Below, one piece after another: positions 4,316 to 25,387 of a DNA stretch of 25,387 nt; positions within the stretch are counted from its first letter, which is position 1, and each line of letters starts with the position of its first letter. Position numbers and translations under genes: made by a program. The notes beneath the pieces are model-generated. The model searched no databases, was not told where the DNA came from, and worked only from the letters and a program-made list of their open reading frames with translations. The stretch is from a virus (taxonomy: Duplodnaviria > Caudoviricetes). The stretch spans positions 1 to 25,387 of IMG/VR virus record IMGVR_UViG_3300049205_000073. One strand, 5' to 3'.

Positions 4316-4341
4316 TTGAAGTTCTCCGATGTTACTCAAGG

Positions 4342-5798: not shown

Positions 5799-5839
5799 GG
5801 TATCTCAGAACTCCTGTGTGACGAGTGTGAAGTTGGGGA

Positions 5840-6409
5840 TCAGGCCGCGTCTTCCGACGTCGACCCTTCCGGGGTGTCGAAGTACTTCGCAGCCAATTCC
5901 TTGTCGGTGCGCAGAACGTACTGCGTCGCCTTGACCATCTGGTCGTGGTCATCGGCCTTGTGGCCCGTGGCGACGACGCGCTCCATCGCACGACGCTCGA
6001 CTTCGCCCGCCCACGTGGAAGCCTTGACTTCCGCCTGCGAGCCGGCCGCGCCGGACTGTGCAGCACCGCGCTCCGGTGCCTTCTTGTTGTCTTCGAGCCA
6101 GCTGTCGATCGTCTTGTCTTCGATCTTCAGCACGCGATCGTCGTCATCGACGCCGGCCGTCGCGAAGAAGGAATCGCGGTGCTTGGGCAGCAGCACCGTA
6201 CGCTTGACGGCGTCTTCGAAGCGATCCTTGATCGTCTTGCGACGAGCTTCGATCTTCTCCTTACGCGCGTCCTCGAGCGCTTTCTTCTGCGCCGCCTCGT
6301 TGTCGGTGATGGTCTTGCGCAGGGCCGCGTTCTCCTCCTCCGACTTCTTCTGTGCAGCAGTCAGCTTGTCGAGCTGGTCCTGCATCGCCTTGGCTTGTGC
6401 CTCGTCCAT
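5840..6409 (-). CDS. Scaffolding protein translated from an internal in-frame start
   Basis: GGAGG-ATTCAAA-ATG at 6409 (MDEAQAKAMQDQL...), at the protease/coiled-coil boundary. Confidence 0.6.
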   Translation of the reverse strand: MDEAQAKAMQDQLDKLTAAQKKSEEENAALRKTITDNEAAQKKALEDARKEKIEARRKTIKDRFEDAVKRTVLLPKHRDSFFATAGVDDDDRVLKIEDKTIDSWLEDNKKAPERGAAQSGAAGSQAEVKASTWAGEVERRAMERVVATGHKADDHDQMVKATQYVLRTDKELAAKYFDTPEGSTSEDAA

Positions 6410-6913
6410 TTTGAATCCTCCAGACTGGTTGGTGAATGCCCGCTTGAAAAGTAACCGCGTCCCACCGGAAATGGGCTTCCGCCGAGATGCCATGAGTGCT
6501 GATAATTCTGCCAGATTACCGATCGCGGGTTGATCGGCACCCAGCAACGCAACCGCGTCCAGCACCCATGGAATCACGCGGTTGTGAGCCTTAACGTTCT
6601 TGAGCAGCTCCACGCTCACGAACTTGTACAGCTTGTTCTTGATCGCATTGGCGACGACCTCTGGTACGTCGGTCCAGTCCGACAGCAGCTTGCCGCCCTC
6701 GCGATACACTTTATCTACCCAACCGAGGGCTGGTTGCCCATCGGTCATCGGCTGGTCGTCGTTGTGCCCGAACTTCAACGGTACGCGACCGCGCAGTCCG
6801 AGCGCTTGGAATGACGCCACGATCCCATCCAGATCATCGGGCGTTAGCTTCAGCTCCTGCGACGCTGGCCATACGCCAACGCTCGCAATCTCCTGTCTCT
6901 TGAGTGTTGCCAT
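5840..6913 (-). CDS. Mu gpI-like prohead protease fused to a coiled-coil scaffold
   Basis: KFGH..PALGWV..YKFVSVEL..LDAVALLGADQPAI pattern of Mu-like proteases; charged helical C-terminal half. Confidence 0.8.
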   Translation of the reverse strand: MATLKRQEIASVGVWPASQELKLTPDDLDGIVASFQALGLRGRVPLKFGHNDDQPMTDGQPALGWVDKVYREGGKLLSDWTDVPEVVANAIKNKLYKFVSVELLKNVKAHNRVIPWVLDAVALLGADQPAIGNLAELSALMASRRKPISGGTRLLFKRAFTNQSGGFKMDEAQAKAMQDQLDKLTAAQKKSEEENAALRKTITDNEAAQKKALEDARKEKIEARRKTIKDRFEDAVKRTVLLPKHRDSFFATAGVDDDDRVLKIEDKTIDSWLEDNKKAPERGAAQSGAAGSQAEVKASTWAGEVERRAMERVVATGHKADDHDQMVKATQYVLRTDKELAAKYFDTPEGSTSEDAA

Positions 6914-7203
6914 CAGCCTGCCTCGCTTCGAGTTTCGATTGATTCACTGGCCACGACCGTGATGACACGACTGCCATCGCCGCTCACGGCCTCGTCCTTC
7001 TGTACGCCGCTCGCCTTGCCAAGCTCCTCGGCCATTACGCCGGAGCGCGTGAGCAATGCCAGCAGCCACGACACCTCGCTCAACGGCACGAGCTTCGCCG
7101 ATCCCATGGCTAGCCAGTTGCGTGCGCGCTTGAGAGCTTGCTCAACGATCATCTTGTCGTTGTGCTTCTTCGTCTGCGACGCGACGAGATCACGGAGCAT
7201 CAT
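6913..7203 (-). CDS. Hypothetical protein (head module)
   Basis: Fills the gap exactly, with 1-nt stop/start overlaps with both neighbours. Confidence 0.65.
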   Translation of the reverse strand: MMLRDLVASQTKKHNDKMIVEQALKRARNWLAMGSAKLVPLSEVSWLLALLTRSGVMAEELGKASGVQKDEAVSGDGSRVITVVASESIETRSEAG

Positions 7204-9710: not shown

Positions 9711-11293
9711 GATAGCATCTCCAGCTCAGAAGTAATGTCGGAGTATATCGGCAAGACGGGAGCGGGCGGAGACACAACGCTCCCCGGCTCGATACTCTGC
9801 ACGATCCCTGCGAACTGCATCACGAAGCTTTCCGCGATGTCGGGCGACGCAATGCCTTCCTTGATCATCGTCGCTTTGGGAATGAGGTCGTCAACGCGCT
9901 CACCGTCGAGACGCGTCTTGATCGAACAGCACTGAGCGTAGAACTCGGTCCACGCTTCGAGCGGGGCAGGGTCGTCGATGAACAAGTCCTCATCGAAGAC
10001 TACCATCTTGTCTCGCAATGCATCACGTGCATTGAAGTGGGATTGCGCGCGCATGTTGCGCCAGCGCTTCGAGTCCGTAGACGCGTCGCCGCCCTTGTGC
10101 ATGAGGACCTTGTGGTTCCTCGCACGAAGCGTTCCGGCTGTGCCGGAGCCCACACCGATGGAGTCCACCACGAAGTCATCCTGACCGGGTCGACCCTGAA
10201 ACTCTACAAATGCCTTCTCGGCTGCATCAGCTGCAAGAATTGGAGCGTCGCCGGCGGGGAAAGAGAAGCGGCGAATACGGAGTACGCGTACGAATGTGTC
10301 GTAGTGTCGGGCGACTGTTACGACCGTTTCACACTCGCCACCGTCGGCGACGTCCACAGACACACGCAACGAGGGCAGCGAGCCATCCGCTGCTCGATCT
10401 CCATCAAGCCTCGCGCGTTCCAACCATTCCTGGTAGATCAGCTGATCTGCGCTGGACCCGGCAAACTCACCGAGGCAGCGCACTTTGAATACAGGACTGG
10501 ACTCGCCGTAGCGTCGGCGCATCTTGTCCACCCAAGCCTTCTCCACGCGAGTCGTCTTCTCGAGGGAGACGTGCACGCGATGATAGTCCTGTTCGAGCTC
10601 CGGCTTCAGGTGCGAGTCCGCAAAGGTGCCGGTCATCTGCGTCGGATTGGAGATCATCACCATGATGAGGATCTTGCCCGTCGACAGTGCGGCCATGATT
10701 ACAGGCCAGAGGGTCTCAGGAACACCGGAGGCCTCGTCCACGAGCACGAGGACATAAGGGTGATGCTTGCCGGCCATGTTTTCTGGATTGGCCGCAGAGT
10801 CCGGCATCAGGCACCAGTCCGGATCTTCGCTCCACTGCACTGAGGTCGCGTTGATCGTGAGCAGCTTGCGATACCACTCCTGCGAGCGCAGTGCGATCTT
10901 GCGGAACTCTGAGAAGAGAAGCGTCGTGGTCTGCTTCAGCTTAGGAGCCGTGGCGAAGATCTTCCCCGGCCAGCAGAAGTTGAAGTAGTGGCTGAGCGCT
11001 GCGATACCGAAGGTCTTGCCCGGACCGTGCATGGAGCGCATCGTGATCTGCGTCTTGCCCTTGTGGTTGACCTTGGTAGGCCAGCCATTGCGGTAGCGCC
11101 ACACGTCGGCCACCGCTTCTAAGAGCTCTGTCTGCCACAGATCTCGACGCCACACGGCATCGACGTCCGTCTCGAGCTGCTTCAGCTGGAGGATCTCAGA
11201 CATGAACCAATCAGGGTCACGCTGAGCCTTGCGCACGAGGGCCATCATGCCCTCCTGCTCCTTGCTGAGCTTCTTTTGCGCGACGGCTTTCAT
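9707..11293 (-). CDS. terL: Terminase large subunit
   Basis: Walker A RSMHGPGKT, Walker B VLVDEASGV, ISNP coupling motif, nuclease SVDVADGG, VVDSIGVG, SPDIAES. Start set at 11293 (TGATG overlap with the upstream gene). Confidence 0.93.
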   Translation of the reverse strand: MKAVAQKKLSKEQEGMMALVRKAQRDPDWFMSEILQLKQLETDVDAVWRRDLWQTELLEAVADVWRYRNGWPTKVNHKGKTQITMRSMHGPGKTFGIAALSHYFNFCWPGKIFATAPKLKQTTTLLFSEFRKIALRSQEWYRKLLTINATSVQWSEDPDWCLMPDSAANPENMAGKHHPYVLVLVDEASGVPETLWPVIMAALSTGKILIMVMISNPTQMTGTFADSHLKPELEQDYHRVHVSLEKTTRVEKAWVDKMRRRYGESSPVFKVRCLGEFAGSSADQLIYQEWLERARLDGDRAADGSLPSLRVSVDVADGGECETVVTVARHYDTFVRVLRIRRFSFPAGDAPILAADAAEKAFVEFQGRPGQDDFVVDSIGVGSGTAGTLRARNHKVLMHKGGDASTDSKRWRNMRAQSHFNARDALRDKMVVFDEDLFIDDPAPLEAWTEFYAQCCSIKTRLDGERVDDLIPKATMIKEGIASPDIAESFVMQFAGIVQSIEPGSVVSPPAPVLPIYSDITSELEMLS

Positions 11294-11598
11294 CAGAACC
11301 CTATAGCTGCGGGATCGATGCGGTTCGGCACGAGGATCCATCCGTGAGCGCGCAGCTCCACGCCGTTGATGGTCATGCGTGAGCGCACGCGATACGCGTA
11401 CTTGCTGAACTGGCTGCGCATCTGGAACACGAACGAAGCGTTGAGCAACGGAACGTCCTGCACCTCGACTATGCGATCAGTGTGGCGCACAGCTCCGAGC
11501 TGCGCAGTCGGCGGCAGATTCTCAAGAAGATGCACGTGGACGGGCGACTCTGGCGGGTTCGCCACGATGCGCATGAAGTTCTTCAGCCAGCGACTCAC
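11293..11598 (-). CDS. Hypothetical protein
   Basis: Translationally coupled on both sides (4-nt and 1-nt overlaps). Confidence 0.65.
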   Translation of the reverse strand: MSRWLKNFMRIVANPPESPVHVHLLENLPPTAQLGAVRHTDRIVEVQDVPLLNASFVFQMRSQFSKYAYRVRSRMTINGVELRAHGWILVPNRIDPAAIGF

Positions 11599-12029
11599 GG
11601 CGCTACGCTCGCTGCTGTGCTCATGAGCAGAGACTCGATGAAGTCCGTGATGAGCAGCTCGGTACTCTGCGGGTCGAGGCCCTGCTTGATCGCGTAGTCC
11701 TCGAGCGCGAGTGAGAACAGGGTCACGAGATCCCGCGCGTCCTGGCGGTCCAGATCGGAGAGCCCCTCAGCACCGTCGATCTCCTTGTACGCCACTTCCT
11801 TCAATGCTGCGAAGGTCACCGACTCTCCGGTCTCTGCAGCAACGCGGAGCTTGGCGAGAATGATCTGCGTGCGCTCGACGTCGTGCGTGCTTAGGAACCT
11901 GCGCATCGCGATGCGCGAGGTCGTTTGCAGCGCCGCTTGCGCTACCGGGCTACTCACTTGCGTGGAAGCGCAGCCGCTCAATCCGCCAAGAATCACGGCG
12001 GTCATCACAGTCGCGTACAAGCTCTTCAT
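11595..12029 (-). CDS. Putative lipoprotein
   Basis: MKSLYATVMTAVILGGLSG-C signal peptide with lipobox; SD GAGGAG; helical mature part. Confidence 0.7.
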   Translation of the reverse strand: MKSLYATVMTAVILGGLSGCASTQVSSPVAQAALQTTSRIAMRRFLSTHDVERTQIILAKLRVAAETGESVTFAALKEVAYKEIDGAEGLSDLDRQDARDLVTLFSLALEDYAIKQGLDPQSTELLITDFIESLLMSTAASVAP

Positions 12030-12039
12030 GTCATCTCCT

Positions 12040-12273
12040 CTACTTGAGAACCCAATCGCCCCAGATCCGCGCCTGCTTAAGCATCTGCTCCTCGAGCATC
12101 ACAGTACAGTCCGTCTTGATGCGGCGTTCCTTGGTTGGAGTAATCTCGGCTGCAGGCGTGCGGGCCGATACCTCCATCTGCGCTACGAACACAGTCACGC
12201 CATTGCGAGTGCGATAGTGCTCGCGCCGAGTGTGCGGCTTCTTCTCGAAGCGCTTTGCTTCACTTGGCTTCAT
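12040..12273 (-). CDS. Hypothetical protein
   Basis: SD GGGAG; overlaps the TerS end; fills the operon gap. Confidence 0.55.
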   Translation of the reverse strand: MKPSEAKRFEKKPHTRREHYRTRNGVTVFVAQMEVSARTPAAEITPTKERRIKTDCTVMLEEQMLKQARIWGDWVLK

Positions 12274-12874
12274 CGGCCACTCCCTTTACAGCAGCAGCGA
12301 AGGCAGCGGCAAGCGAGCCGTCGCTGTTGGTGAGGTTGAGATTCTCTCGGTACTTGCTTGGGCGCTCTGCACGCAGGAGCGTATTCATCAGCGTGTCGCT
12401 GTACTCCTTGAACGTGCTCACGACCTTGCCTTGGTACACGATAGGCTTGTCGATGCCGTCGCGAGCGCGGCGTACTGCCTCCTGCTCGAGGAGGTCGATG
12501 GCGTTCTCGCGCGCCTCCGCCTCCAGCTCCTTGAACAGCTCGTGCTCCTCCAGCTGCTCCTCGGTCCACTCGCGGAACTTACCTTCGCCGCGCCAGACCT
12601 TTACCATGTATGAGCGTGAGATGCGTGCGGCCCTGCACGATGCGCCGATGTTCCCGGTCTTGGCCATCGTGGTGAGGTAGATCGCTTTCTTCTTTGCGAT
12701 CTCTGCCGGAGTAAGCGGCTTGCCGCGCTGAGGGAGTCGAGTGATCGTCGGCTCCTTCGCGCGCGATCCCCCGCTTCCTGTGCGTCGGCTGGGGGATTTC
12801 TCGGAGTGACTCGGAGCTGAACGATCATCACGTCGTGATTTGATCTTCGATCGCTTCGCACTCTTCGACTTCAC
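12260..12874 (-). CDS. terS: Terminase small subunit
   Basis: HTH-like GNIGASCRAARISRS and conserved LEQEAVRRARDGIDKPIVYQG..EYSDTLM..LLRAERPSKYRE; GTG start with GGGAG SD 7 nt upstream. Confidence 0.85.
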   Translation of the reverse strand: MKSKSAKRSKIKSRRDDRSAPSHSEKSPSRRTGSGGSRAKEPTITRLPQRGKPLTPAEIAKKKAIYLTTMAKTGNIGASCRAARISRSYMVKVWRGEGKFREWTEEQLEEHELFKELEAEARENAIDLLEQEAVRRARDGIDKPIVYQGKVVSTFKEYSDTLMNTLLRAERPSKYRENLNLTNSDGSLAAAFAAAVKGVADEAK

Positions 12875-12935
12875 TCATTCGCTCCCGATTTGAACCCGCC
12901 GCTCTGCCCGTTGGCCGGGCTAGTAATTGGGCGGC

Positions 12936-12965
12936 ATGGTAAAGCGCATATATATAGGTGTGCAA
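12936..12965 (-). promoter_or_regulatory. Sigma70-like promoter for the packaging/structural operon
   Basis: TTGCAC-N18-TACCAT followed by GCCGCC on the minus strand, upstream of terS. Confidence 0.55.
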
Positions 12966-13054
12966 GCTTGGCTTACGTGCTGGCCGTAATGCTCGCACTT
13001 GTGAGCAGGGTATGAGCATTCCGCCTCAGGCAAAACATAGGCCCAAAAGAAGAA

Positions 13055-13078
13055 ATGCTCACATGCTCACATGCTCAG
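13055..13078. repeat. Tandem 8-mer ATGCTCAC x3 (third copy ATGCTCAG)
   Basis: atgctcac atgctcac atgctcag next to an AT-rich tract. Confidence 0.9.
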
Positions 13079-13155
13079 ATCATATTTAAGTATATACATG
13101 AGTGCGTACATGTGCGCGCTACGCACGCTCATCACGCATAACTTACCTAATATAA

Positions 13156-13176
13156 TGAAGTATGAAGCTTGAAGCT
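13156..13176. repeat. Tandem 7-mer TGAAG(TA/CT) x3
   Basis: tgaagta tgaagct tgaagct. Confidence 0.8.
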
Positions 13177-13462
13177 ACTGTCGCGATCGGATCGGATCAA
13201 CTTCACTCGCCACGACCCGCAGAGCCTGCGCCCTCCGCTCCCGCGCGCTCACGTGAGGGAGCATCCACATCACCGAGGCCCTTCGCACTCCACTCATGAG
13301 CCTGCCGAGGCGCTGCGAGTCCACGCGATTGAACACTTGGCACAGCGCACGTGTCGCCGCTTGCATGCTGCGCACGTTGCGCGCTGCAACTACACACGTA
13401 GGCGCTACAGCTGCGCACGCCAGGGCCGCAACCACGCTGCCGCTGCAGGAATATTGACCTTT

Positions 13463-13492
13463 TTGCAAAGCCCAGCGCAGCTATGGCACAAT
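13463..13492 (+). promoter_or_regulatory. Sigma70-like promoter upstream of the primase leader
   Basis: TTGCAA-N18-CACAAT followed by GCCGCC; same architecture as the promoters at 16516 and 12965. Confidence 0.55.
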
Positions 13493-13498
13493 GCCGCC

Positions 13499-13726
13499 GT
13501 GTTTTTGGTAGCGGCAACGGGCGCAGTGCAACGGCGCGGCGTTGCAAAGTTTGCGGTAAAGCCTCGGCGCATAGCGGTCGGGGCTTTTGCGTTTCTGGAG
13601 TTCGCGAAGTTTTGGATCGACGACGATCCGAGTCTTCATCAGTGATGCGACTGACGGACGTCTCACGACGTACGTCGTCGCTGCTGCACTCAGCGTTGAT
13701 CGTGGCCCTACCAAAAACACCACGAT
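13499..13726 (+). ncRNA. Candidate structured RNA / 5' leader of the primase-helicase gene
   Basis: 13-bp perfect long-range complement 13499-13511/13708-13720 enclosing several hairpins, some with G-U pairs. Confidence 0.4.
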
Positions 13727-13761
13727 GTTCGTTAGTCGCATCAACTGATGGGGACTCGGAG

Positions 13762-15828
13762 ATGAAAAAGTCGAAAGATCGTAGCAGCGGGAAACGGAAG
13801 TCAAAGGATCATGATGGGCTCATGGAGACGGCGCTTGAAGACCTCAAGCGATCCGGGCTCACGAGCAGGGACTTCGAGAAGCTGGGCCTGGAGCTTCTCA
13901 CTGCCGATGAAACAGATGACTACGTGGGCGAAGCGCGATCCTCCTATAGGATCCCGTACTTCGACCTGCACGGGAAGAAGATCTCGTACTCACGAGTGAG
14001 GTTTCTCGAAACGAAGAAGGGGAAGTTCTCGACTTCCACCGGATCCTTCAGGTACTCACAGCCGGCCAACTCTGCGCCGCACGCCTACTTCCCTCCGTAT
14101 CTGAAGTGGGACAAGATCGCCAAGGACGTGAGCGAGACCATACTCATCACGGAAGGCGAGAAGAAAGCGGCGCTCGCGGCGAAGGAGGGCATTGCATGCT
14201 TGGCCCTCGGTGGAGTCTACGCCTTCAAGAGTACGAAGCGGCTTTGGGATCTCATCCCCGAGCTGCAGCAGATCCAGTGGAAAGGACGCAAGGTCGAGAT
14301 CTGCTTCGACGCCGATGTGATGTGGAAGGCCGAAGTGCGGAACGCGTTGAGCATGCTCGCGTTCACGCTCATGCAGGAGCAAGGGCCGGAGGATATCAGC
14401 TTCGTGTTTCTAGATGCGGAGACAGCTGGCCCCAAGACCGGTCTGGATGACTTCATAAAAGCGAACGGAGTCGACGCGTTCCTCAAGCTGGAACGGCAGA
14501 GCTACATGGCCAGCGAGAAAGTGCAGATCCTCAACAGCAGGGTCTGCTACGTCGAGAACCAGATGCGGTTCTTCGATATACGAGTGGGGAAGTACTACAA
14601 GAACCTATTCCACGTTCGTGAGTCCTTCATGGGCCTCGGTGAGGCGATGGTCGACGGCAAGAAGACCATACCGATCGTGGACGTGTGGGCCAAGAGCGCG
14701 ACCCGCCGCAGCGTGCGGGACGTTGTGTATCAACCCGGTCAGCCCGAGATGATCGACGATCAGGACCTCAACATATGGCAACCTCCAAAGATACAGCCCA
14801 AGAAGGGCACGCCGAAGATGTGGCTCGACTTGTTATTCCACATCATGCGGGAGACCGAGCATGCACAGTGGTTCTTAAAGTGGTTGGCCTACCCTATCCA
14901 AAATCCTGGCGCGAAGTTGTTCCAGGCACCCTTCGTGTACTCGTCTATGCAGGGCACGGGCAAGACTTTCATCGTCGACCCTATTATGGAGTTGATATAC
15001 GGCTCGACGAATTTCTACCGTTTGTCGAACAAGGGGCTTGGCTCGAGTTTCAACGGGTATGCATCCAAACGGCAGTTCGTGGTTACGAACGAGGTCTTCC
15101 TTCCAGACTATCGGGACCGACGCGATGCGATGGGCATGCTGAAGGATATCATCACTCGGGAGACTGTTACGATCAATGAGAAGTTCCAGCCGGAGGTGGA
15201 GTACATCGACTGCTGTAACTACTACTTCACGTCCAACCATGCGGACGCGCTGGCTCTAGAGCCCAACGATCGCCGCTTCTTCGTGATTGAGGGGCCGAAC
15301 GAGCGGCTGAGCAAGTCCACATACGTGGCGATGGACGAGTGGGTACGTAGCGCCGGCGGCGCGGCGCAGATCCTGCACTATCTGCAGAACAACGTAGACG
15401 TGAAGGACTTCGTGCCGAAGGGCGACGCGCCGATGACCAAGTGGAAGAAGCAGATCATCGAGATGACACGGGATCCGCTGGGCGAGTACACCGAACGATT
15501 AATCGAAGACCCGGATCGCATCTTCATGGTCAACGGCGCGAAGCCGGACTTGAGCTTGTTCCGTGCCGAGGATCTGCTGAAGACCTTCGAGCACACGTAC
15601 CCCAAGTACTACATCAACGTGACGGTCAAGCGCTTGGCCGGGATGCTCGCGTCGGACCGACGCATTGAGAGGCGGCGCGTGCGACTGACCGAGGACTCGC
15701 CGCTGATCACGCTCTACGCCATCTTCGACCGCGACAAGTGGAAGGACGCACGGAACAAGGAATGGGCGCAGCATTACGTTGGCCTGTCGAAGCAGTTTGC
15801 GAAGTACCGTCGAGAGAAGTCACACTAG
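13762..15828 (+). CDS. DNA primase (Toprim, DUF3854-like) fused to SF3 helicase (D5/DUF5906-like)
   Basis: ILITEGEKKA, ICFDAD, KTGLDDFI (Toprim); QGTGKT Walker A, VVTNEV Walker B, FTSNH motif C, DRRFFV. Start placed at ATG 13762 rather than 13483. Confidence 0.9.
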   Translation: MKKSKDRSSGKRKSKDHDGLMETALEDLKRSGLTSRDFEKLGLELLTADETDDYVGEARSSYRIPYFDLHGKKISYSRVRFLETKKGKFSTSTGSFRYSQPANSAPHAYFPPYLKWDKIAKDVSETILITEGEKKAALAAKEGIACLALGGVYAFKSTKRLWDLIPELQQIQWKGRKVEICFDADVMWKAEVRNALSMLAFTLMQEQGPEDISFVFLDAETAGPKTGLDDFIKANGVDAFLKLERQSYMASEKVQILNSRVCYVENQMRFFDIRVGKYYKNLFHVRESFMGLGEAMVDGKKTIPIVDVWAKSATRRSVRDVVYQPGQPEMIDDQDLNIWQPPKIQPKKGTPKMWLDLLFHIMRETEHAQWFLKWLAYPIQNPGAKLFQAPFVYSSMQGTGKTFIVDPIMELIYGSTNFYRLSNKGLGSSFNGYASKRQFVVTNEVFLPDYRDRRDAMGMLKDIITRETVTINEKFQPEVEYIDCCNYYFTSNHADALALEPNDRRFFVIEGPNERLSKSTYVAMDEWVRSAGGAAQILHYLQNNVDVKDFVPKGDAPMTKWKKQIIEMTRDPLGEYTERLIEDPDRIFMVNGAKPDLSLFRAEDLLKTFEHTYPKYYINVTVKRLAGMLASDRRIERRRVRLTEDSPLITLYAIFDRDKWKDARNKEWAQHYVGLSKQFAKYRREKSH

Positions 15829-15837
15829 GAGACCGCC

Positions 15838-16056
15838 ATGACCGAGAAGTTACCAGAAGGGTTCGAGATAGTTGATGGAACGATCAAGTTCGACGCCGAA
15901 CGATTCGAAGTCGTGCGCGTCACGCAAGAGGGAGTAGGCGTTGCGGGAGTGAACGACTATGGAGACGTGTGCATGCCGAACACGACGTGGTTCGAAGTGC
16001 GTCAACGCGCAGATTGGAGACCGCGCCAGTTCGTGACAGCAGTTTATTCGGAATAG
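15838..16056 (+). CDS. Hypothetical protein
   Basis: SD AGGAG; follows the primase gene directly. Confidence 0.65.
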   Translation: MTEKLPEGFEIVDGTIKFDAERFEVVRVTQEGVGVAGVNDYGDVCMPNTTWFEVRQRADWRPRQFVTAVYSE

Positions 16057-16066
16057 GGAGATCGCC

Positions 16067-16432
16067 ATGCCAATCTCTAAAGAAGCTATTGAACAAGCCC
16101 GCAGCAACGGCAGGCCGATGAAAGAGGCCGAGCTGCGTGAGTACGCGCGCTGCGCGTGTTGCAATCGCCTCGTCGGCGAGTCCGGCGTGCCGCTGTTCTG
16201 GAAGGTAACTATCGAGCGGTACGGGATGGACGTGCAGGCCATGACGCGACAGAACGCGCTGGCCCGCATAGTTGGTAATCCGCGCATCGCAAACGCGCTA
16301 GGCCCGGATGAAGATATGGCGCACGCGATGATGCCGCCGCACGTTCTTGCGGTCTGCGAAACTTGCGGCGTTGGATCCAATCTGCCGATCGCGGTATTGT
16401 CAGAACTGCCAGGAGTCGTGCTCAAAAAGTAG
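16067..16432 (+). CDS. Hypothetical protein with two CxxC pairs (putative Zn-binding)
   Basis: CACC and CETC; SD GGGAG. Confidence 0.7.
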   Translation: MPISKEAIEQARSNGRPMKEAELREYARCACCNRLVGESGVPLFWKVTIERYGMDVQAMTRQNALARIVGNPRIANALGPDEDMAHAMMPPHVLAVCETCGVGSNLPIAVLSELPGVVLKK

Positions 16433-16439
16433 CCAAACT

Positions 16440-16458
16440 CTGCTCACTTTTTGAGCAG
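16440..16458. promoter_or_regulatory. Inverted repeat CTGCTCA-N5-TGAGCAG (operator-like)
   Basis: Perfect 7-bp arms; the TGCTCA half-site is also repeated at 12990-13078. Confidence 0.45.
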
Positions 16459-16515
16459 CGATTTCAGGCATCTGTAAGTTATTGTTTCGCAACGCAATTG
16501 GGTGCATAGCTGCCG

Positions 16516-16545
16516 TTGCAACGCGCCTAGTTGCGCAGGCATAAT
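16516..16545 (+). promoter_or_regulatory. Sigma70-like promoter
   Basis: TTGCAA-N18-CATAAT followed by AT-rich ATATAT. Confidence 0.6.
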
Positions 16546-16551
16546 ATATAT

Positions 16552-17066
16552 GTGTTGGAGACCGGGCCGCTGCAGCGGTACCGCCGGGAGCCGGGCAGGT
16601 AAGCCCAAGCCACGCTAGGTAGCGCCTAGCAGCCCTGCTGACAAGCGGGGCGCATGCGGTCAAGCAAAACACGTTTTGGTGACGTGGGCCATATACAGCA
16701 CCGATTAATGCACGCAGCTACAACCTGCGCGCGCCCAGCTGCCGGGCAAGGCAGTACAACGCAAGCTGCAACTAGCAGCGCACAGCAAACGGGCACACAC
16801 GCCGCAAGGCACGTTTAAAGCCCGCGCTAACACACACGCCGCAAGGCACGTTTAAAGTTAGGCCAGTAATGTGCGCCCAGCGAAAGCAGCAGGCTACATA
16901 GCAACGTGCGGCGGGCGAGAAAACCGCAGCTAGCAACAAACGCACGTTGTAGCGTTACAGCCCGGTTGTGTGAACCGGGCATGTAGCGCAGAGCGCATTC
17001 AATTCCGAGTGCGCTCTGTTCTGCATAGGTCGACAGTACACACACTAGGCTAAGGAAGATACAAGC
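16552..17066 (+). ncRNA. Candidate large structured ncRNA or long structured leader (~500 nt)
   Basis: No credible ORF; more than ten hairpins in series, G-U pairs, GCAA/GAAA tetraloops, duplicated motif with covarying stems. Confidence 0.55.
16794..16857 (+). repeat. 27-bp perfect direct repeat x2 (CACACACGCCGCAAGGCACGTTTAAAG), period 37
   Basis: Copies at 16794-16820 and 16831-16857. Confidence 0.95.
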
Positions 17067-17351
17067 ATGAACACTTTAGTAGCACCGTCGTTCGTCGCGT
17101 CGACGATCGACAGGATCCACGACCTTGTCGACGAATCGATGTTCCACAGCAAAGTGGACCGCACGCCAACGCGCTACGCCAACGAGCTGGCGACCAAAGC
17201 GTTGGGCCACATCGTCCTTAACGGCTCCGTTCCGACGGACGAGGAGCTGCGAGCGCTCGTCATGGCCGATTACGAAGCGATCCCGCTTTTGGGAGAGCGC
17301 GACGGGTTCACGGATCTCGACTACGCCATCCAGCTGATGGTCGTGCCATGA
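17067..17351 (+). CDS. Hypothetical protein
   Basis: SD TAAGGA; ATGA overlap with the next gene. Confidence 0.7.
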   Translation: MNTLVAPSFVASTIDRIHDLVDESMFHSKVDRTPTRYANELATKALGHIVLNGSVPTDEELRALVMADYEAIPLLGERDGFTDLDYAIQLMVVP

Positions 17352-17536
17352 ACTACGTCGTCTGGCTGATCTTCAGCATCGCTCCTGGCCACTACGACCA
17401 CGAGCGCACGACGTACGTGTGCACTAGCGACCGCACATGCGCCGCGCTGTGCGCCAACGTGCAAAAGGAAACCAGTGCGGTAGGCTGCTACTGGCAACCA
17501 CGCGACGAGCCGGAGAGACCGCCGCCTCCAGTGTGA
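17348..17536 (+). CDS. Small Cys-rich hypothetical protein with hydrophobic N-terminus
   Basis: ATGA coupling; four Cys; Pro-rich C-terminus. Confidence 0.55.
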   Translation: MNYVVWLIFSIAPGHYDHERTTYVCTSDRTCAALCANVQKETSAVGCYWQPRDEPERPPPPV

Positions 17537-17832
17537 GGATGCGCTAACCAGCTGCGCATCGGCACTGAACTCGAAAGCGCCAGCGAGGGCGTCATCGAAA
17601 TACTCGCGACCAGCAGAGGAGGACTCGCCATGCGTCCGCAGCGTTGAAAAGCGTTGCACTCTGCGCACTACCGAATTCCCACTCCCACCCAGCGGGACTT
17701 AGTGCGCAGACTGGAACGATCTTCGAAGGCAGCAGTTTAGTAGCGAGGGTCTGCTGCGCATCGTGAGGTGCGGCACAAAACTCTTGCATAGATTTACAAC
17801 CCAACCGATCTAACATGCCCATAGGAGACTTT
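17537..17832 (+). ncRNA. Candidate structured intergenic RNA element
   Basis: Hairpins with GAAA and GUGA tetraloops, an 11-bp stem 17660-17670/17700-17710 and a possible pseudoknot. Confidence 0.4.
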
Positions 17833-19044
17833 ATGGCCATCGGTAGCAGAACTCGCGGTGTCAACCGCAATGTATCCAAGGTAGAGAACGCAGACTTCAT
17901 CACGATGCCGCGCTGGCAACAGCGCGTCCTCGCCGAATGGATGGGATGCTTTCATGCGTGTGAGGAGACGAAGACGAAGGAGGCGTACGGGCAGGTACTT
18001 AAAGAGAAGTGCCTTGCAAACCTGCCGCGCGCCCAAATCGGCTACGAGATCATCATCCTGAAGCAGGAGCCGGCCGTCGCCGACGGCACGATGCCTGCAG
18101 ATCTCGAGAAGAAGATGTACGCCACGCTGACAAGCGTTATCAGTCAGCACGCCGACGCGCTGGGCGAGAAGGCGTTCAAAGCTGTCGACTCTTGCGTCGA
18201 GGCGATGAAGAAGCAGCTCGAAGCCTTCGCGAAGGAACAGGTGCGCGAAGCCGCTGAGAAGCGCGCGCCCATTACGGTCAGGTCGAAAGGTAAGACCAAG
18301 GTAGTCAAGGGCGTTCTGCCTCCAGAGTTCAAGCAAATGGTCGAGCTGGCCAGTGCCCGCGTTCCGATTCTGCTCGTCGGCCCTGCCGGTTGCGGCAAGA
18401 CGTTCTTGTGCGAGAAGCTCGCGGAGGCGCTGGACCTCGACTACGCCGACCAGTCGTGCAGCGAGGGCATGAGCGAGGCCGTTTTCAATGGCCGGCTGTT
18501 GCCCATCGGCGGTCGCGGCGAGTTCAAGCATGTGATGTCGCCGTTCCAGCAGCGTTACGAAAAAGGCGGCGTGTTCCTGCTCGACGAGATGGATGCTGGC
18601 GATCCTAACTTGTTCACGTACGCCAACAAGGCTATTGCGAACACGTCGTACACTTGCGAGCAGCGGTACGAGAAGCCTGTGTTGAAGAAGCACGAGGACT
18701 TCGTGCTGGTGGCTGCAGCCAACACGTTCGGCAACGGTGCGGACGCCATGTACGTCGGCCGCAACCAGCTGGACGCTGCAACGCTGGACCGGTTTAAAGT
18801 TGGCCTCATCACGATGGACTACAATCGCGACGTCGAAGCGAGCATCGCGACGCCTGAACTTTGCGAGTGGGCGTGGTCGGTGCGCGGCGCGATCTATGCG
18901 AAGAAGATTCGCCGCATCATGTCGACACGCGTGATCAAGGACCTCGCCACTATGACCGAGATGTACGGCTGGGGCAAGGAAGAGTGGAAGGGCGCGTTCT
19001 TTAAAGGCTGGACTGCAGCAGAGGTAGCACTGTGCAACAACTAA
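17833..19044 (+). CDS. MoxR/CobS/CbbQ-type AAA+ ATPase
   Basis: GPAGCGKT, FLLDEMD, AANT, LDAATLDRF; start set at ATG 17833 (AGGAG SD). Confidence 0.9.
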   Translation: MAIGSRTRGVNRNVSKVENADFITMPRWQQRVLAEWMGCFHACEETKTKEAYGQVLKEKCLANLPRAQIGYEIIILKQEPAVADGTMPADLEKKMYATLTSVISQHADALGEKAFKAVDSCVEAMKKQLEAFAKEQVREAAEKRAPITVRSKGKTKVVKGVLPPEFKQMVELASARVPILLVGPAGCGKTFLCEKLAEALDLDYADQSCSEGMSEAVFNGRLLPIGGRGEFKHVMSPFQQRYEKGGVFLLDEMDAGDPNLFTYANKAIANTSYTCEQRYEKPVLKKHEDFVLVAAANTFGNGADAMYVGRNQLDAATLDRFKVGLITMDYNRDVEASIATPELCEWAWSVRGAIYAKKIRRIMSTRVIKDLATMTEMYGWGKEEWKGAFFKGWTAAEVALCNN

Positions 19045-19982
19045 AACTTGACGAGAGCATGAACGTCGGAGTGCATCTGGATCCAGACGGTCGCGGCGTG
19101 TCGTATGAATGGGAAAGCTACGAAGACTTCCTGCCTGATCTTGCTAAGATCAAAGAGAAGCGACCCGCCGTGTTCAAGGGCACGCTGGAATGTGGTGGCG
19201 CGCGAGATCCCGAACGCTGGTTCGGTTGCAAGTCCTTCTACGATGTGCAGCACAAGACCGCGTACGGTTGGCCCGAGCTGCGCGAGCGCTGCATCAAGAT
19301 GCTGAACGGCATCGAGCTCGATCTGCCGCTGTTCCCCACGATGAGTCAGGTGCGCCGTCGCAAGCGCATTCGTGATGAGCAAGGCGACGCGCTGGACATA
19401 GGGCGCGTGTGGAATGGTCAGCTGGACACGGCATGGGAACGCCCGGTGCGCACGGAGCGCAATGCGATGAACACAAAGCGCATCACAGTCGCGTTCGATG
19501 TGACTGCAAATGCGTATGTCAGTAATGACATGGCAATGTGGCGCGCAGCGTTGTGTACGTTGCTTGTCGACAGCTTGGCGCGAGCGGGTCGCGTATTCGA
19601 GATATGGGTAGTGGACAGCACGGCGAGTCCATTCACCTGGGGGAGTCACATGCCCATGAAGTTGTGGTCCGCGTGGTGCGTTAAGCGCACCGGCGACCCT
19701 TTACTGCTGGACCGTGTGTGCGCAATGGTTAGCGTTGGGTTCATGCGTACGGCAGGCTTCATGGCTATGGGCGCAGGTACGTGGTCACCATCTACCGGCT
19801 TCGGAGCGGCGATGAACTACGGCCTACCGATGACGCTGCGCAAGCGGCAAGAATCTGGCGAGGTCGTCCTGCGAATCGGCGAGTGCTATGATCGCCGGTC
19901 TGTCATCAACGAGTACAAGCGTGCGTGGGAAGAAGTGGAACGCCAGCACGCAGGAGATCAACATGCGCAATGTGTGGGATGA
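19032..19982 (+). CDS. VWA-like / CobT-like partner of the AAA+ ATPase
   Basis: Adjacent to the MoxR-type ATPase; GDALDIGRVWNG and ITVAFDVTAN (degenerate MIDAS strand), LVDSLARAG. Start uncertain (19032 or 19059). Confidence 0.6.
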   Translation: MQQLKLDESMNVGVHLDPDGRGVSYEWESYEDFLPDLAKIKEKRPAVFKGTLECGGARDPERWFGCKSFYDVQHKTAYGWPELRERCIKMLNGIELDLPLFPTMSQVRRRKRIRDEQGDALDIGRVWNGQLDTAWERPVRTERNAMNTKRITVAFDVTANAYVSNDMAMWRAALCTLLVDSLARAGRVFEIWVVDSTASPFTWGSHMPMKLWSAWCVKRTGDPLLLDRVCAMVSVGFMRTAGFMAMGAGTWSPSTGFGAAMNYGLPMTLRKRQESGEVVLRIGECYDRRSVINEYKRAWEEVERQHAGDQHAQCVG

Positions 19983-20274
19983 TTTGTTCGATGAGGACCT
20001 GCTTGCAGGAATGAACGCCAAGCTCCGCGCAGCCCAGAAGCTCGCGGACCGACAGGCGTTCGGTATGCCGCGGCCTGAGCTGACCGTTCAGTTCCGCGAG
20101 CAGATGGATGGCGTACGTCAAGATATCGATCGATTGCTGGAGCGGGTGGCAGCCTGTGAGCCGCAAGAAACTACACTACTAAAGGGGAGACAGCTCGATG
20201 CGCACGAAGCTTTTGTGCATAATCTTAATAAGCATCTGTCCGACGTTAGTCGGCTGCACCGCACTCGGCGTTGA
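19963..20274 (+). CDS. Hypothetical protein
   Basis: AGGAG SD before ATG 19963 (MRNVWDDLF...). Confidence 0.55.
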   Translation: MRNVWDDLFDEDLLAGMNAKLRAAQKLADRQAFGMPRPELTVQFREQMDGVRQDIDRLLERVAACEPQETTLLKGRQLDAHEAFVHNLNKHLSDVSRLHRTRR

Positions 20275-20494
20275 GTACGGACACACCAGCCATCCATTCG
20301 CGGGGCCTCCATTTGGCCCTGACGGAATGGAGGACACTCTCGACGCCATCTATGTGAACGGCCGTTACGAATACGGCCGTTTCTATGTAGACTCGGCGGT
20401 CGGGTACAAGGTGACAGACGGCGGGCTAACCGGACCGAAGGTCGTTTGGTCTGGGCGCTTTGGCGTGATGCTGTACGACAGGAGACGACAATGA
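20198..20494 (+). CDS. Putative exported/lipoprotein with beta-strand-rich mature region
   Basis: Signal-like MRTKLLCIILISICPTLVG-C; alternating aromatic/Gly strands; SD GGGGAG; ATGA overlap with the ligase gene. Confidence 0.6.
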   Translation: MRTKLLCIILISICPTLVGCTALGVEYGHTSHPFAGPPFGPDGMEDTLDAIYVNGRYEYGRFYVDSAVGYKVTDGGLTGPKVVWSGRFGVMLYDRRRQ

Positions 20495-21348
20495 CCGACC
20501 TGGACTTCAAAGTGATGCTCGCCAAGACGTACGACCCCAAGCGTGTCCAGAACTGGAAGGAGGTTTGGGTCGAGCCGAAGCTGGATGGCGTGCGCGTCAT
20601 TGCGATGGTGAGTCGCAGTGGTCCGGTGCGGTACTACAGCCGCAATGGTCGAGAGCTTGGTATGTTCACGCACCTGGACGGGAGCTTGCGCAAGCTGCGT
20701 ATGCGTTTGCCGGCGACGGCGACGACGGTGTTCGACTGCGAAGCTGTCGGCATGACGTTCGGCGACGTGAGCGGGGCCATACACACGAAAGGCACAGTTG
20801 CCTTGACGTGCCGCTTGCACGTGTTCCACTACATGCCGCTACGAGCCTTCGAGCTTGGGCTCGACACGACGTCGCAGTTCGATCGCAACGATGACCTGCA
20901 GGTCGCGCTGAAGGCCGAGGCGATCAAGGGCCTCACAGTGTCCAAGCCCGCTCGAGTCTTTGACCATCGTCAGGTGTTGTACGCGCACGACCAGTACCGT
21001 GCGGCAGGCAAGGAAGGCACCATGGTCAAGAACTTGCAGAGCGCGTGGACGGCAACGCGTAGCTGGGCATGGATGAAGATCAAGGACGAGCAGACGACCG
21101 AAGTCATTGTGACCGGCATCAAGGAAGGCACTGGCAAGTACGCTGGCAATACAGGCGCGCTGATCTGTGAGCACAACGGGCGCGTCGTGCGCTGCTCCGG
21201 CATGAGCGATGAACAACGGCGCAAGTTTTGGGACAAGCCCAAGAGCATCATCGGCAAGATGATCGAAGTAACTTACCAGGAAGAAACGGAGGCAGGCTCG
21301 CTGCGACACATTCGATTCAAACGAGTTCGGGATGACAAACAGGAGTGA
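20491..21348 (+). CDS. lig: ATP-dependent DNA ligase (minimal adenylation + OB fold)
   Basis: EPKLDGVR (KxDG), [42 protein letters not shown]; ATG 20491 with AGGAG SD. Confidence 0.93.
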
Positions 21349-21350
21349 CC

Positions 21351-21533
21351 ATGTTGATTCTGACCAGACGGGTGGGAGAGACCATCATGATCGGCGACGA
21401 CATCATAGTCACGGTGCGCGAGATCCAAGGCAACAATGTTCGCCTTGGCATTAGCGCTCCGAAGGAAGTGCCGGTGCATCGCGAAGAGGTGTACCGCCGT
21501 AACAAGCTGCAGGAAAAGGCGGTGCGCACATGA
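21351..21533 (+). CDS. csrA: Carbon storage regulator CsrA/RsmA homolog
   Basis: [22 protein letters not shown]...[19 protein letters not shown], near-canonical CsrA. Confidence 0.96.
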
Positions 21534-21799
21534 GCAAGCATGCCGCAACGATGACAGCCGCTGTGTTGTCCGTTATCCTGCTCGCGCTCATGGCCACGCC
21601 GCGCATCGAAGCTGATGGCGGCGAGTACGTGCTGAAGGCGTACATGCAGGAGGCGTACGGACACGCTAAGTGGGAGCCTCTGCTGATCTTCAGTTCGCGC
21701 GACGCATGTCGTGATGTGCTGCACTCCAACATCAGCGAGCGCTATCGCTGGGGCGCAAGTTACGTGATCGCGACGTGCGAGCCGAGGGTCTCGCCATGA
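21530..21799 (+). CDS. Hypothetical exported/membrane protein
   Basis: N-terminal hydrophobic helix, two Cys; ATGA overlaps on both sides. Confidence 0.6.
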
Positions 21800-22173
21800 A
21801 GACCCTCGGCAAGCAGATCGACAGCTTATACACACTCGACGCCGAGATCAAAGCGCAGAACAAGGTCCTGAAGGATCTCAAGTCCAGGCGCTACAAGCTG
21901 GAAACGAAGTTGCTCAAGGACTTCGAGAAGAGCGACATCGACGGCTGCAAGGGTCAGCGCGGTGTAGCAAGAACCCGAAAGGCGACGTTCTACAACATCA
22001 AGGACCGTCGCAAGTTCGAGAAGTACGTGCTGAAGCACAAGGCGCTGGATCTGTTCCAGAATCGCCTCAGCGCAGAGGCATTGAAGGCGCGGCGAGACGA
22101 AGGCGAGCACGTTCCTGGCGTCGGGTCGTTCGACCGCACAAGCATAACCGTAACCAAGCGAGGAGCAAGGTAA
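21796..22173 (+). CDS. Conserved phage replication-module protein (basic, coiled-coil N-terminus)
   Basis: [12 protein letters not shown]...LDLFQNRLS...VPGV pattern of small proteins that precede SSB/PolA in siphoviruses; ATGA overlap at 21796. Confidence 0.7.
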   Translation: MKTLGKQIDSLYTLDAEIKAQNKVLKDLKSRRYKLETKLLKDFEKSDIDGCKGQRGVARTRKATFYNIKDRRKFEKYVLKHKALDLFQNRLSAEALKARRDEGEHVPGVGSFDRTSITVTKRGAR

Positions 22174-23289
<1,116 letters not shown>

Positions 23290-23333
23290 CCAGCACTGAT
23301 TGCGCTGTTCCTCGGTCAACGAGGATCCCTCTG

Positions 23334-23360
23334 TGCCCCACCTAAGACGTGGGGCGTTTT
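23334..23360 (+). terminator. Intrinsic terminator-like hairpin after the SSB-like gene
   Basis: GCCCCAC-7nt-GTGGGGC followed by GTTTT. Confidence 0.6.
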
Positions 23361-23376
23361 AAAGTTTGGAGGACAC

Positions 23377-23598
23377 ATGAAGATCCGTCCGAGATTTGCG
23401 CCCGACGTTGTGCTTGAATCATGGCGCACCGTTAATGAAGCGCTGACCAACATGACGGAGGACGAACTGTTCGCATCGATAGCCGAAGAGGTCAGCAAGC
23501 CTATCGCGCATCGTCGTGCAGACGTCGTGCATCGCTTGCATCGTAGATACTGCAAGCTACGCCAAGAGCGAGAACTCAACAAGTACCTAAGCGGGTGA
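23377..23598 (+). CDS. Conserved phage hypothetical protein
   Basis: SD GGAGG; SWRTVNEAL..RLHRRYCKLRQERE. Confidence 0.75.
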   Translation: MKIRPRFAPDVVLESWRTVNEALTNMTEDELFASIAEEVSKPIAHRRADVVHRLHRRYCKLRQERELNKYLSG

Positions 23599-23601
23599 CA
23601 C

Positions 23602-23784
23602 ATGGGATTCATGACCTGGGTTCGCGTGATGTGCGAAAAACATCCGACGCAAGTTGTAACCGTCGAACGTAGACAGCATCAGTCGGGCTACGATCGTGAG
23701 AACGAGATAGCGTACGACTTCACGCTCTTCGTGAAGCCGTGTCCGCTGTGCCAGCACGAAGCTTTGCACTCGGCGGGCGGCTGA
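23602..23784 (+). CDS. Small hypothetical protein (CxxH / CxxC)
   Basis: Fills the gap before polA; CEKH and CPLC. Confidence 0.5.
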   Translation: MGFMTWVRVMCEKHPTQVVTVERRQHQSGYDRENEIAYDFTLFVKPCPLCQHEALHSAGG

Positions 23785-23785
23785 T

Positions 23786-25387
23786 ATGATAAAGCTAGAA
23801 GACGCATCGATCGTCGACTTCGAAACGAAGGGCATAGCGTCGCGACCTGATTATCCGCCCGAGCCGGTAGGCTGTGCCGTTCAGTTGCCGGGACAGAAGC
23901 GCGAGTACCTTGCATGGGGACATCCAACAGGAAACAACACCGATGTGGGAACAGCTAGACGCAAACTTGTTCAAGCCTACCAAGCGCGGGCTACTGTCTT
24001 TCATCATAGCGCATTCGATCTTGACGTTGGTGCTGTGCACCTGGGGCTGCCCACGCCGCGCCGTGTGGAGGACACGCTTTACCTGTCGTTCCTTCACAAT
24101 CCGTATGAGCGTGACCTTGGGCTCAAGCCGCTGGGCGCGAAGTACCTTGACATTCAGCCTGATGCCCAGGACCGACTCAAAGAGTGGGTTCTTGCTAACG
24201 TTCCTGAAGCGAAGAAGAAGCCGTCGTCGTGGGGCGACCATATGTGGAAAGCTCCCGGTACCCTCATGGGTACGTACGCCAAGGACGATCTACGTATTAC
24301 GAGCGGCATCTACAAGAAGTTCGGACGCCATGTCCGTGATCGAAACATGGAGGAGGCTTACGAGCGCGAGCTTGAATGCACGCAAATATCAATGGACATG
24401 GAGCGTGGTGGAGTACGTGTCGATCGTAAACGGCTAGCCAAGTGCCGCGACGTGTTCCTTGAGATGGAGCACGACGTAGTGCGGCGCATCGCCAAGAAAC
24501 TGCGGGTCAACCCGAAGGACCTGAAGTCTGATTCGAACAAGAAAGGCTTCAACATCAACTCGGGCAAGCAGCTAGCCGACGCGCTCGTGCGTGCTGGGAA
24601 GCTCGATACGATTACCAAGACGAAGTCGGGCAAGCAGATCTCGACTAAGATGGCACACTTGGAAGAAGGGTGTAACGACAAGGAGCTCGTGCGGCTGCTG
24701 GGCATACGGTCGGTGACGCAGAAGTACATGACCAGCTTCATCGAGCCGTGGCTCGATAAGTCGCAGTATGGCGGGCGTATCCAACCGAACTTCAATCAGG
24801 TGCGCGGGTATGACGAAGGCGGCGGTGGCGCACGCAGCGGTCGCTTCAGCAGTAGCGACCCCAACTTGCAGAACGTGCCAGCCAACCCCGAAGAGTCGCA
24901 GAACAAGGACGTACTGATGGCGCTTGCGAAGACGCTGCAGGACGACTACAACTTCAAATTCTTGGGGCTGCGCGACTTCATCATCGCCGACGAGGGTCAG
25001 GTGATGATCTGCGTCGACTACAGCCAGCAGGAGCTGCGCATCCTTGCGCACTTCGAGCGTGGCGCGTTGATGCGTGCGTACTTGAAAGATCCCGAGCTGG
25101 ACATTCACGAGTACATCAGGCAACTGATTCTGCGCGAGACCGGGCTGGACTTTCCTCGCAAGCACATCAAGATCACGGTGTTCGGCATCATCTACGGCAT
25201 GGGCATTGGCAAGCTAGCTGATAGATTGGAGGTCGACAATCAGACGGCCAAGAGCATCAAGAACAGCTTGTTTAAGGTAGTGCCGGGAATTCCCAAGCTG
25301 ATGCGGCAGTTGGAAGACTTGGCCAATCATGACGAGCCGCTCAAGACCTGGGGCGGGCGCGAGTACTATTGCGAAGAGCCTAAGTAC
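23786..25387 (+). CDS. polA: DNA polymerase family A with 3'-5' exonuclease (partial, runs off the window; absent from the ORF track)
   Basis: Hand translation: MIKLEDASIVDFET (ExoI), YLAWGHPTGNN, FHHSAFD (ExoII), YAKDD (ExoIII), SGRFSSSDPNLQNVP, DYSQQELRILAHF (motif A), RKHIKITVFGIIYGMG (motif B). Confidence 0.95.
   Translation, partial: MIKLEDASIVDFETKGIASRPDYPPEPVGCAVQLPGQKREYLAWGHPTGNNTDVGTARRKLVQAYQARATVFHHSAFDLDVGAVHLGLPTPRRVEDTLYLSFLHNPYERDLGLKPLGAKYLDIQPDAQDRLKEWVLANVPEAKKKPSSWGDHMWKAPGTLMGTYAKDDLRITSGIYKKFGRHVRDRNMEEAYERELECTQISMDMERGGVRVDRKRLAKCRDVFLEMEHDVVRRIAKKLRVNPKDLKSDSNKKGFNINSGKQLADALVRAGKLDTITKTKSGKQISTKMAHLEEGCNDKELVRLLGIRSVTQKYMTSFIEPWLDKSQYGGRIQPNFNQVRGYDEGGGGARSGRFSSSDPNLQNVPANPEESQNKDVLMALAKTLQDDYNFKFLGLRDFIIADEGQVMICVDYSQQELRILAHFERGALMRAYLKDPELDIHEYIRQLILRETGLDFPRKHIKITVFGIIYGMGIGKLADRLEVDNQTAKSIKNSLFKVVPGIPKLMRQLEDLANHDEPLKTWGGREYYCEEPKY

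Follow-up and report, generated by a model that had tools for sequence, protein, structure and literature searches.

Twin RNA units with identical cores and exchanged closing stems in a predicted leader RNA of an uncultured soil phage

The stretch of DNA analysed here (IMG/VR record IMGVR_UViG_3300049205_000073, hereafter the window) is a 25,387-base fragment of an uncultured soil tailed phage and holds about 35% of its genome. Head genes lie on the − strand, and genes for a primase-helicase, a cobS-like ATPase, a ligase, a CsrA-like regulator and a DNA polymerase lie on the + strand. The primase-helicase, which probably starts later than 13483, and the cobS-like gene flank a 634-base gene-free gap (16433–17066) containing two adjacent RNA units that share one core, together referred to as the twin unit. 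The twin unit is a real feature and a lineage-specific module of a predicted large leader RNA. Words of the region are present in 24 soil and rhizosphere runs, 10 of which contain half or more and two of which may be its source.

The initial annotation described two copies of one motif, and their sequence and coordinates (CGGGC-core-GCCCG, then CTAAC-core-GTTAG) were exactly as claimed. The 25-nucleotide (nt) cores are indeed identical, and the exact repeat reaches 27 nt, comprising a C, the core and a G; it is the only exact repeat of at least 16 nt in the window outside an acidic low-complexity gene, and two core matches arose in 0 of 100 shuffles. Three of the five pairs of the closing stems change on both sides and stay Watson–Crick, as had been proposed, with the other two unchanged, meaning that all six positions of the three middle pairs differ between the units with pairing retained. 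At leader composition (0.255 per pair), the chance of four Watson–Crick pairs outside the repeat in both copies is about 2e-5 and that of the three changed pairs alone is 0.017, both figures being post hoc for a structure read from the same sequence. A two-row shuffle test of stem covariation was weak, with 60 of 500 shuffles as good.

The units lie within a predicted RNA that starts behind a promoter-like site and ends just ahead of the first downstream ribosome-binding site. The region 16540–17070 folds with a z-score of −4.39 (−3.3 by a second estimate); folding alone is moderate evidence, since z-scores of −3 or below also turn up in 2 of 16 coding controls; across the controls, A makes up 30–46% of the unpaired bases. 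The leader contains no + strand frame above 54 amino acids (aa). Rfam gave no match at gathering score in the window, its five weak matches (expect value (E) 1.8–6.7) all being far below gathering, and ARAGORN found no transfer RNA (tRNA) or transfer-messenger RNA genes there. The long 3′ hairpin, nearly invariant in the two closest relatives and showing compensatory change, may be a processing site. A second long imperfect hairpin (window 17646–17724), in the gap before cobS, is possibly another. The motif GC(U/C)GACAAG is common to the three closest leaders (window 16640–16645, L009 8670, L010 11253) and occupies a hairpin loop in at least two of them; it presumably recalls lambdoid boxB loops.

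Searches with the primase and cobS proteins led to these two close lineages, L009 and L010, which have the window's promoter, 5′ domain and 3′ hairpins and differ in the middle. A profile from the three sequences (window, L009 and L010) recovered L139 (E 7e-11), L143 (2e-9) and L149 (9e-4); L144 was spotted by eye, L141 and L192 came from a promoter profile (L192 at E 0.019), and L146, L172, L184 and L209 were obtained from the promoter plus a low-U filter (16 of 243 sites). Because that filter selected for promoter and low U, the composition of these last four is not independent support, and L172, L184 and L209 are counted only as candidate relatives of the window RNA. Of 13 loci compared for gene order, seven lineages (L137, L138, L139, L143, L144, L146 and L192) resemble the window in carrying the leader between primase and cobS; L001 repeats L138, and L141, L149, L172, L184 and L209 have no cobS in the stretch available. 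Where leaders could be aligned, double-sided changes affect 20 of 151 predicted pairs between L009 and L010, 25 of 105 between L139 and L143, and 8 of 45 in the 3′ domain when the window is included; the structures behind the pairwise counts were themselves derived from these alignments. The z-score is negative in each of the 11 leaders (−2.0 to −5.7), with 40–50% A among the unpaired bases of the + strand, G–U pairs are fewer on the + than on the − strand in 9 of the 11, and a long hairpin near the first ribosome-binding site ends all 8 folded leaders. Whole hairpins are gained and lost between related leaders. The single Rfam match among nine related loci was a tRNA. The window's leader belongs to what is apparently an undescribed family of large phage leader RNAs, in which the promoter and the 3′ hairpin stay constant and the middle changes quickly (Table 1).

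Table 1. Features of the gene-free gap and its two flanking landmarks in the window
Feature	Position	Strand	Remarks
Primase-helicase	13483..15828	+	PHROG 1156; upstream landmark; database form 668 aa
TGCTCA-N5-TGAGCA palindrome	16441..16457		Upstream of leader promoter; repeated in both closest relatives (2 and 3 copies)
Sigma-70-type promoter-like site	16516..16545	+	Conserved in relatives; transcription probably starts near 16552
Large structured leader RNA, predicted	16552..17025	+	About 480 nt, 14% U
5′ domain	16557..16606	+	Common to L009, L010 and L149; variable hairpin inserted
Possible 7-base-pair (bp) helix enclosing both units	16778..16876	+	16778–16784 with 16870–16876
Unit 1	16790..16824	+	5-bp stem, 6x9 internal loop, 3-bp GNRA hairpin
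27-nt exact direct repeat	16794–16820 and 16831–16857	+	Two copies, start-to-start 37 nt
Unit 2	16827..16861	+	Same core; 3 of 5 stem pairs exchanged
10-bp helix	16901..16950	+	Kept despite sequence change: L010 10/10 pairs, L009 8/8 (matched by hand)
GUGUG-loop hairpin	16960..16980	+	Loop complementary to ACACAC loops; covariation at 4 of 7 stem pairs (3-sequence alignment)
Long 3′ hairpin	16982..17025	+	Just ahead of first downstream ribosome-binding site
Third ACACAC run	17038..17045	+	Linker before ribosome-binding site
cobS-like AAA ATPase	17815..19044	+	PHROG 249, synteny; downstream landmark

Several local features of individual relatives were also recorded. The sequence CCTGAACCCTAACCCTAGCA is conserved, with a repeat, in the leader RNAs of L139 (8211–8232) and L143 (9161–9182) and may partly pair with an upstream strand; we take this repeat to be telomere-like. 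In L192, the 3′ hairpin of the leader contains a smaller hairpin that resembles a tRNA T-arm (11306–11322), and a tRNA gene lies directly behind the leader of L184 (15783–15855). Three other routes to relatives or repeats were set aside: a pattern search with the 3′ hairpin returned only the two closest lineages and one chance match (L013); 80 loci from bacterial genomes proved to be distant primases, none matched by the leader or promoter profile below E 4.9; and a GCA/TGC density scan was uninformative, its locus L169 being a coding repeat.

RNA from this locus was found in two rhizosphere metatranscriptomes from two studies, chosen because they contain this stretch and compared with the window over 5500–25387. 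Each holds one exact contig aligned over its full length, 16707–16887 in one (181 nt, depth 33) and 16708–16861 in the other (154 nt, depth 9.7). Both contigs span both twin units without a loose end, and the two account exactly for all depth in 16108–17433, figures that come from 16 of 723 pieces, among the matches listed. In the two RNA runs 22 of 30 and 21 of 30 bins were empty, which argues against DNA carry-over: contaminating DNA at a depth of 33 should have left signal across the genome. The absence of RNA cover over the remaining leader and genome is contig evidence only, and a strong signal at 22.7–23.4 kb consists of low-identity matches to the acidic gene. The contigs share a 5′ edge (16707/16708) that lies within an AU-rich linker, 3 nt upstream of a hairpin, and this hints weakly at processing; the shorter contig stops at 16861, where unit 2 also ends.

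The proposed GNRA hairpin on an internal loop held up in its hairpin, GCC-GCAA-GGC having a pairing probability of 0.77–0.98 in all seven contexts, and in centroid folds ACACAC is unpaired in both units; the less secure part is the closing stem of copy 2, which is predicted to be nearly lost in the full leader. Stem 1 pairs with a probability of 0.45–0.97 depending on context. The helix that could enclose both units has a probability of 0.96 in 16778–16878, 0.11 in 16707–16887 and 0.01 in the full leader, and the stability of the 72-mer is ordinary (z −0.49). The second closing stem is predicted to open in the full leader because a long-range helix, better by about 5 kcal/mol, takes its 3′ arm, and it may, by these predictions, be absent from the full-length RNA. 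The RNA piece seen in the libraries lacks 16648–16674, the strand that outcompetes unit 2. The initial annotation's broader claim, that the RNA is selected for structure, gains support from the upstream promoter, the RNA contigs over both copies and the helices elsewhere in the leader that covary across relatives; what the annotation overlooked is that the unit forms one lineage-specific part of a far larger RNA. Its suggestions of a twin protein site or a docking module stay at the level of proposals, and RNA polymerase as a partner is not indicated by the evidence here.

We favour, with a probability of roughly 0.4, the reading that the twin loops are a two-fold binding site on an abundant folded phage RNA that titrates an oligomeric host RNA-binding protein. 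That the entire core is identical while the stems diverge suggests a partner that recognises the full loop, and it is core recognition, avidity and unlike stems taken together that would favour a two-fold protein decoy. Early + strand transcription would begin at about 16552, the long 3′ hairpin would be the place of release from the downstream messenger RNA (mRNA), and a further cut would fall near 16707. The RNA, trimmed to a stable piece of about 155–180 nt, would lose the competing long-range helix, so that both units could fold. The candidate protein would recognise the whole 25-nt core, duplication would raise avidity for an oligomer, unlike closing stems would prevent out-of-register pairing between the copies, and the host protein would be titrated early in infection.

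Several points weigh against this protein-decoy reading. Stem 2 pairs with a probability of 0.86 alone, 0.47 in 16707–16887, 0.02–0.05 in the full leader and, more generally, only 0.01–0.05 once 16648–16674 is present, and in the detected piece (16707–16887) both stems reach only about 0.45. The contigs carry no strand, true ends or level, and the way in which the libraries, the matched pieces, the pairwise counts and the coding controls qualify their results has been described above. No binding partner was indicated by any analysis, and CsrA-type GGA sites were not enriched in the leader (3 seen against 3.4 expected in shuffles). The twin unit was found in no relative in which its flank pairing could have been compared: an exact search of IMG/VR with the core returned nothing, a model of the unit gave a best match of E 0.72 in six relatives, a descriptor of the unit matched no leader except the window's own, and the 10 other leaders contain neither ACACAC nor an internal repeat above 12 nt. 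L009, L010, L143 and L144 share a less strictly defined element, in which UUUAAA or a sequence close to it comes after a hairpin, and the twin unit may have arisen from it.

Other readings account for parts of the same evidence. The ACACAC loops could pair with the GUGUG loop at 16967–16972, within or between molecules, with A-minor contacts by the GNRA loops, yielding an RNA-only docking device that might build a multimer as in GOLLD and ROOL or act as a switch competing with the third ACACAC by the ribosome-binding site. This is somewhat unlikely in our estimate, although it is the only predicted loop–loop match of at least 5 bp in the window leader (6 bp, −7.9 kcal/mol), UGUGUG occurs in one of nine leaders, the window's, and the matching loop of L010 differs in sequence yet pairs with its own 3′ linker (6 bp, −5.9). 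GOLLD and ROOL do assemble through kissing loops and A-minor contacts (PMC12286853). However, 7% of shuffles contain UGUGUG and 41% contain GUGUG, the linker of L009 does not pair in this way, the piece seen in RNA does not extend to the GUGUG hairpin, and a 6-nt contact leaves the identity of all 25 core bases unexplained. An unlikely alternative is that the RNA works in cis, its twin hairpins modifying the transcribing polymerase or protecting or controlling the downstream early mRNA. Only one strong promoter-like site precedes the cobS–ligase–polymerase gene run, and the leader follows it directly, with small early genes always downstream. The put RNAs of phage HK022, which act on the transcribing polymerase, are twin hairpins of about 70 nt, a size that the twin unit resembles. 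Yet no + strand intrinsic terminator was found in 14404–25387, the genes that follow show no RNA signal in the bins where the leader piece does, and relatives that have this promoter lack the unit. It is also rather improbable, though supported by several observations, that the 27 nt were simply copied into a variable part of the leader and tolerated there, with stem 2 partly a product of chance and its 3′ arm belonging to a long-range helix with 16658–16665. The collapse of stem 2 when 16648–16674 is present, long-range helices at 0.6–0.9 and the turnover of hairpins between related leaders fit such an origin, and a recent copy explains the identical cores. Four further Watson–Crick pairs around the copy would nonetheless be expected by chance in only about 0.4% of cases at 0.255 per pair, and the RNA piece in two studies covers both units, with one contig ending precisely where unit 2 does.

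A reading at the level of double-stranded DNA, as two operator or origin boxes, is the one to which we give the least weight. An exact direct repeat downstream of a primase-helicase gene speaks for it, but the flanks change as complementary pairs, a 37-bp period would place the copies on opposite helix faces, the RNA libraries contain the stretch without the neighbouring genome, and the conserved TGCTCA boxes located elsewhere are more convincing as DNA sites. A reading with a specific target is that the ACACAC loops mimic the template of the DRT3 anti-phage RNA and capture DRT3a, which we consider very improbable. The DRT3 defence RNA has ACACAC as its template (10.64898/2026.05.04.722794), and class 2 templates sit between two helices (10.64898/2026.06.29.735271). 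The leader holds two independent ACACAC runs against 0.31 expected (P 0.03), the best match of the unit model outside the two units is a DRT3 RNA (E 0.14), and RVT_1 was found in none of five related records, two of them complete. Against this, in 11 folded DRT3 RNAs the template mostly comes after the 3′ strand of a closed hairpin and before the 3′ strand of the closing helix, whereas ACACAC of the unit follows a 5′ strand and runs straight into another; in an alternative full-length fold unit 2 ACACAC does follow a closed hairpin but still enters a 5′ strand. Only one of 13 loci had a model match at the template, and it was not significant; the motif is confined to the window's leader among those compared, and one ACACAC run arises in 28% of shuffles. 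Placement next to drt3a or drt3b was not seen, with no reverse transcriptase family among the 32 proteins of the window, which covers about 35% of the genome. The leader is not a member of the DRT3 RNA family, and that it mimics one is a distant prospect. Equally doubtful is a clade-wide version, in which a decoy-array RNA would keep a fixed promoter and scaffold while lineages swap and duplicate mimics of host defence RNAs, ACACAC here trapping the DRT3 reverse transcriptase; if true, such an array would be an RNA counter-defence against reverse-transcriptase immunity.

The window has no close cultured relative. Compared with cultured phages, 20 kb of the window had no match, the window leader gave seven chance matches only and the L139 and L010 leaders none; the nearest cultured-phage relatives are 33% identical in primase and 42% in cobS. 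Closer relatives, known by their primases (P0002–P0009), reach 65–83% identity. A CsrA-like regulator is encoded at 21345–21533 and is present in one of five related records as well. Near the first ribosome-binding site, a hairpin loop of L009 and L010 reads AUGGA in the place of the window's GUGUG. A 371-aa protein (22174–23289) that adjoins the DNA polymerase combines extended runs of Asp and Glu with an N-terminal part that is conserved (80% in L137). On the head-gene side, a 1023-aa protein with two glycosyltransferase-like parts and a methyltransferase-like part (1268–4339) is encoded directly behind the major head gene and is followed by a radical SAM gene (21–749). TGCTCA boxes occur at window 12990–13078 and 16419–16457, at L010 5218–5288, 5522–5557 and 10814–10903, and at L009 8343–8381. 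They form a triplet with an 8-bp period in the AT-rich divergent gap ahead of primase in the window and in L010, and palindromes ahead of the leader promoter. The TGCTCA-N5-TGAGCA palindrome is likely a DNA site for a protein, and the boxes are likely sites of one phage DNA-binding protein, marking a candidate origin or control region. An RNA hairpin, TGCTC-TTGT-GAGCA at the DNA level, echoes the palindrome in the leaders of L009 (8934–8947) and L010 (11527–11544), and the window lacks it. A scan for the palindrome as a route to relatives returned 122 loci, nearly all unrelated.

The literature searched contained no description of the leader RNA. Six supplementary files of PMC10690425, scanned for four contig identifiers and two motifs, were negative; files 1, 2 and 4 lay outside the scan, so the RNA may be among the candidates of that study. 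GOLLD and ROOL have solved structures and no known job, and the window's family offers a different design with RNA evidence from natural samples. Within it, the 72-nt twin unit is a small handle, with a built-in stem swap, for testing what such RNAs bind. If the changing middle were a set of decoys, RNA counter-defence would extend beyond CRISPR mimics.

GOLLD and ROOL are large, abundant phage RNAs of 500–800 nt with many helices and A-rich loops (PMC12286853). The leader is like them in being phage-encoded, large and multi-helix with A-rich loops and variable linkers; its size, covariation and RNA contigs would fit an abundant RNA of this kind, although contigs give neither level nor full length. 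Unlike them, it has no Rfam match (in the window, or in nine related loci beyond the tRNA), it has no tRNA island in the window (one tRNA stands beside a distant leader), it is far less conserved in sequence between relatives and sits at the head of an early gene run, and it is seen in RNA only as a piece of 155–180 nt, any multimer depending on the predicted 6-bp loop–loop contact. The lnc001 and lnc002 RNAs of phage K (Kayvirus; PMC9241854) are long intergenic RNAs that are driven by a phage early promoter and reach the highest read counts; compared by description, they differ in belonging to an unrelated phage group and host range and in being tRNA-linked. The DRT3 RNA shares an unpaired ACACAC between helices (10.64898/2026.05.04.722794) and differs in the helix topology around the motif, in the adjacent drt3a/drt3b genes that the window lacks and in the absence of a significant model match. 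Closest in role would be the Racrs, phage RNAs expressed from their own promoter that mimic a host RNA and sequester defence proteins, with a short hairpin bearing 5′ and 3′ tails (PMC10651486). The leader, however, has no match to the CRISPR-DR4 (type I-F) repeat at E up to 10, nor to other Rfam repeat families, which were covered only by a less sensitive all-family scan, and its copies lie 10 nt apart in a long RNA rather than as a solitary repeat. The put RNA of HK022 is similar in having two adjacent hairpins, about 70 nt in all, behind an early phage promoter, whereas the twin units share an identical core and have no downstream intrinsic terminators that we could find. CsrB and RsmZ are protein sponges, abundant RNAs in which one and the same loop recurs on stems that vary. 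The leader likewise repeats loops on variable stems, in a phage that encodes a CsrA-like protein, but the twin core has no GGA, and GGA is not clearly raised in the other 10 leaders. By analogy, the leader may work like GOLLD, ROOL and the phage K RNAs and, if it is a decoy, like the Racrs, while belonging by model to none of them.
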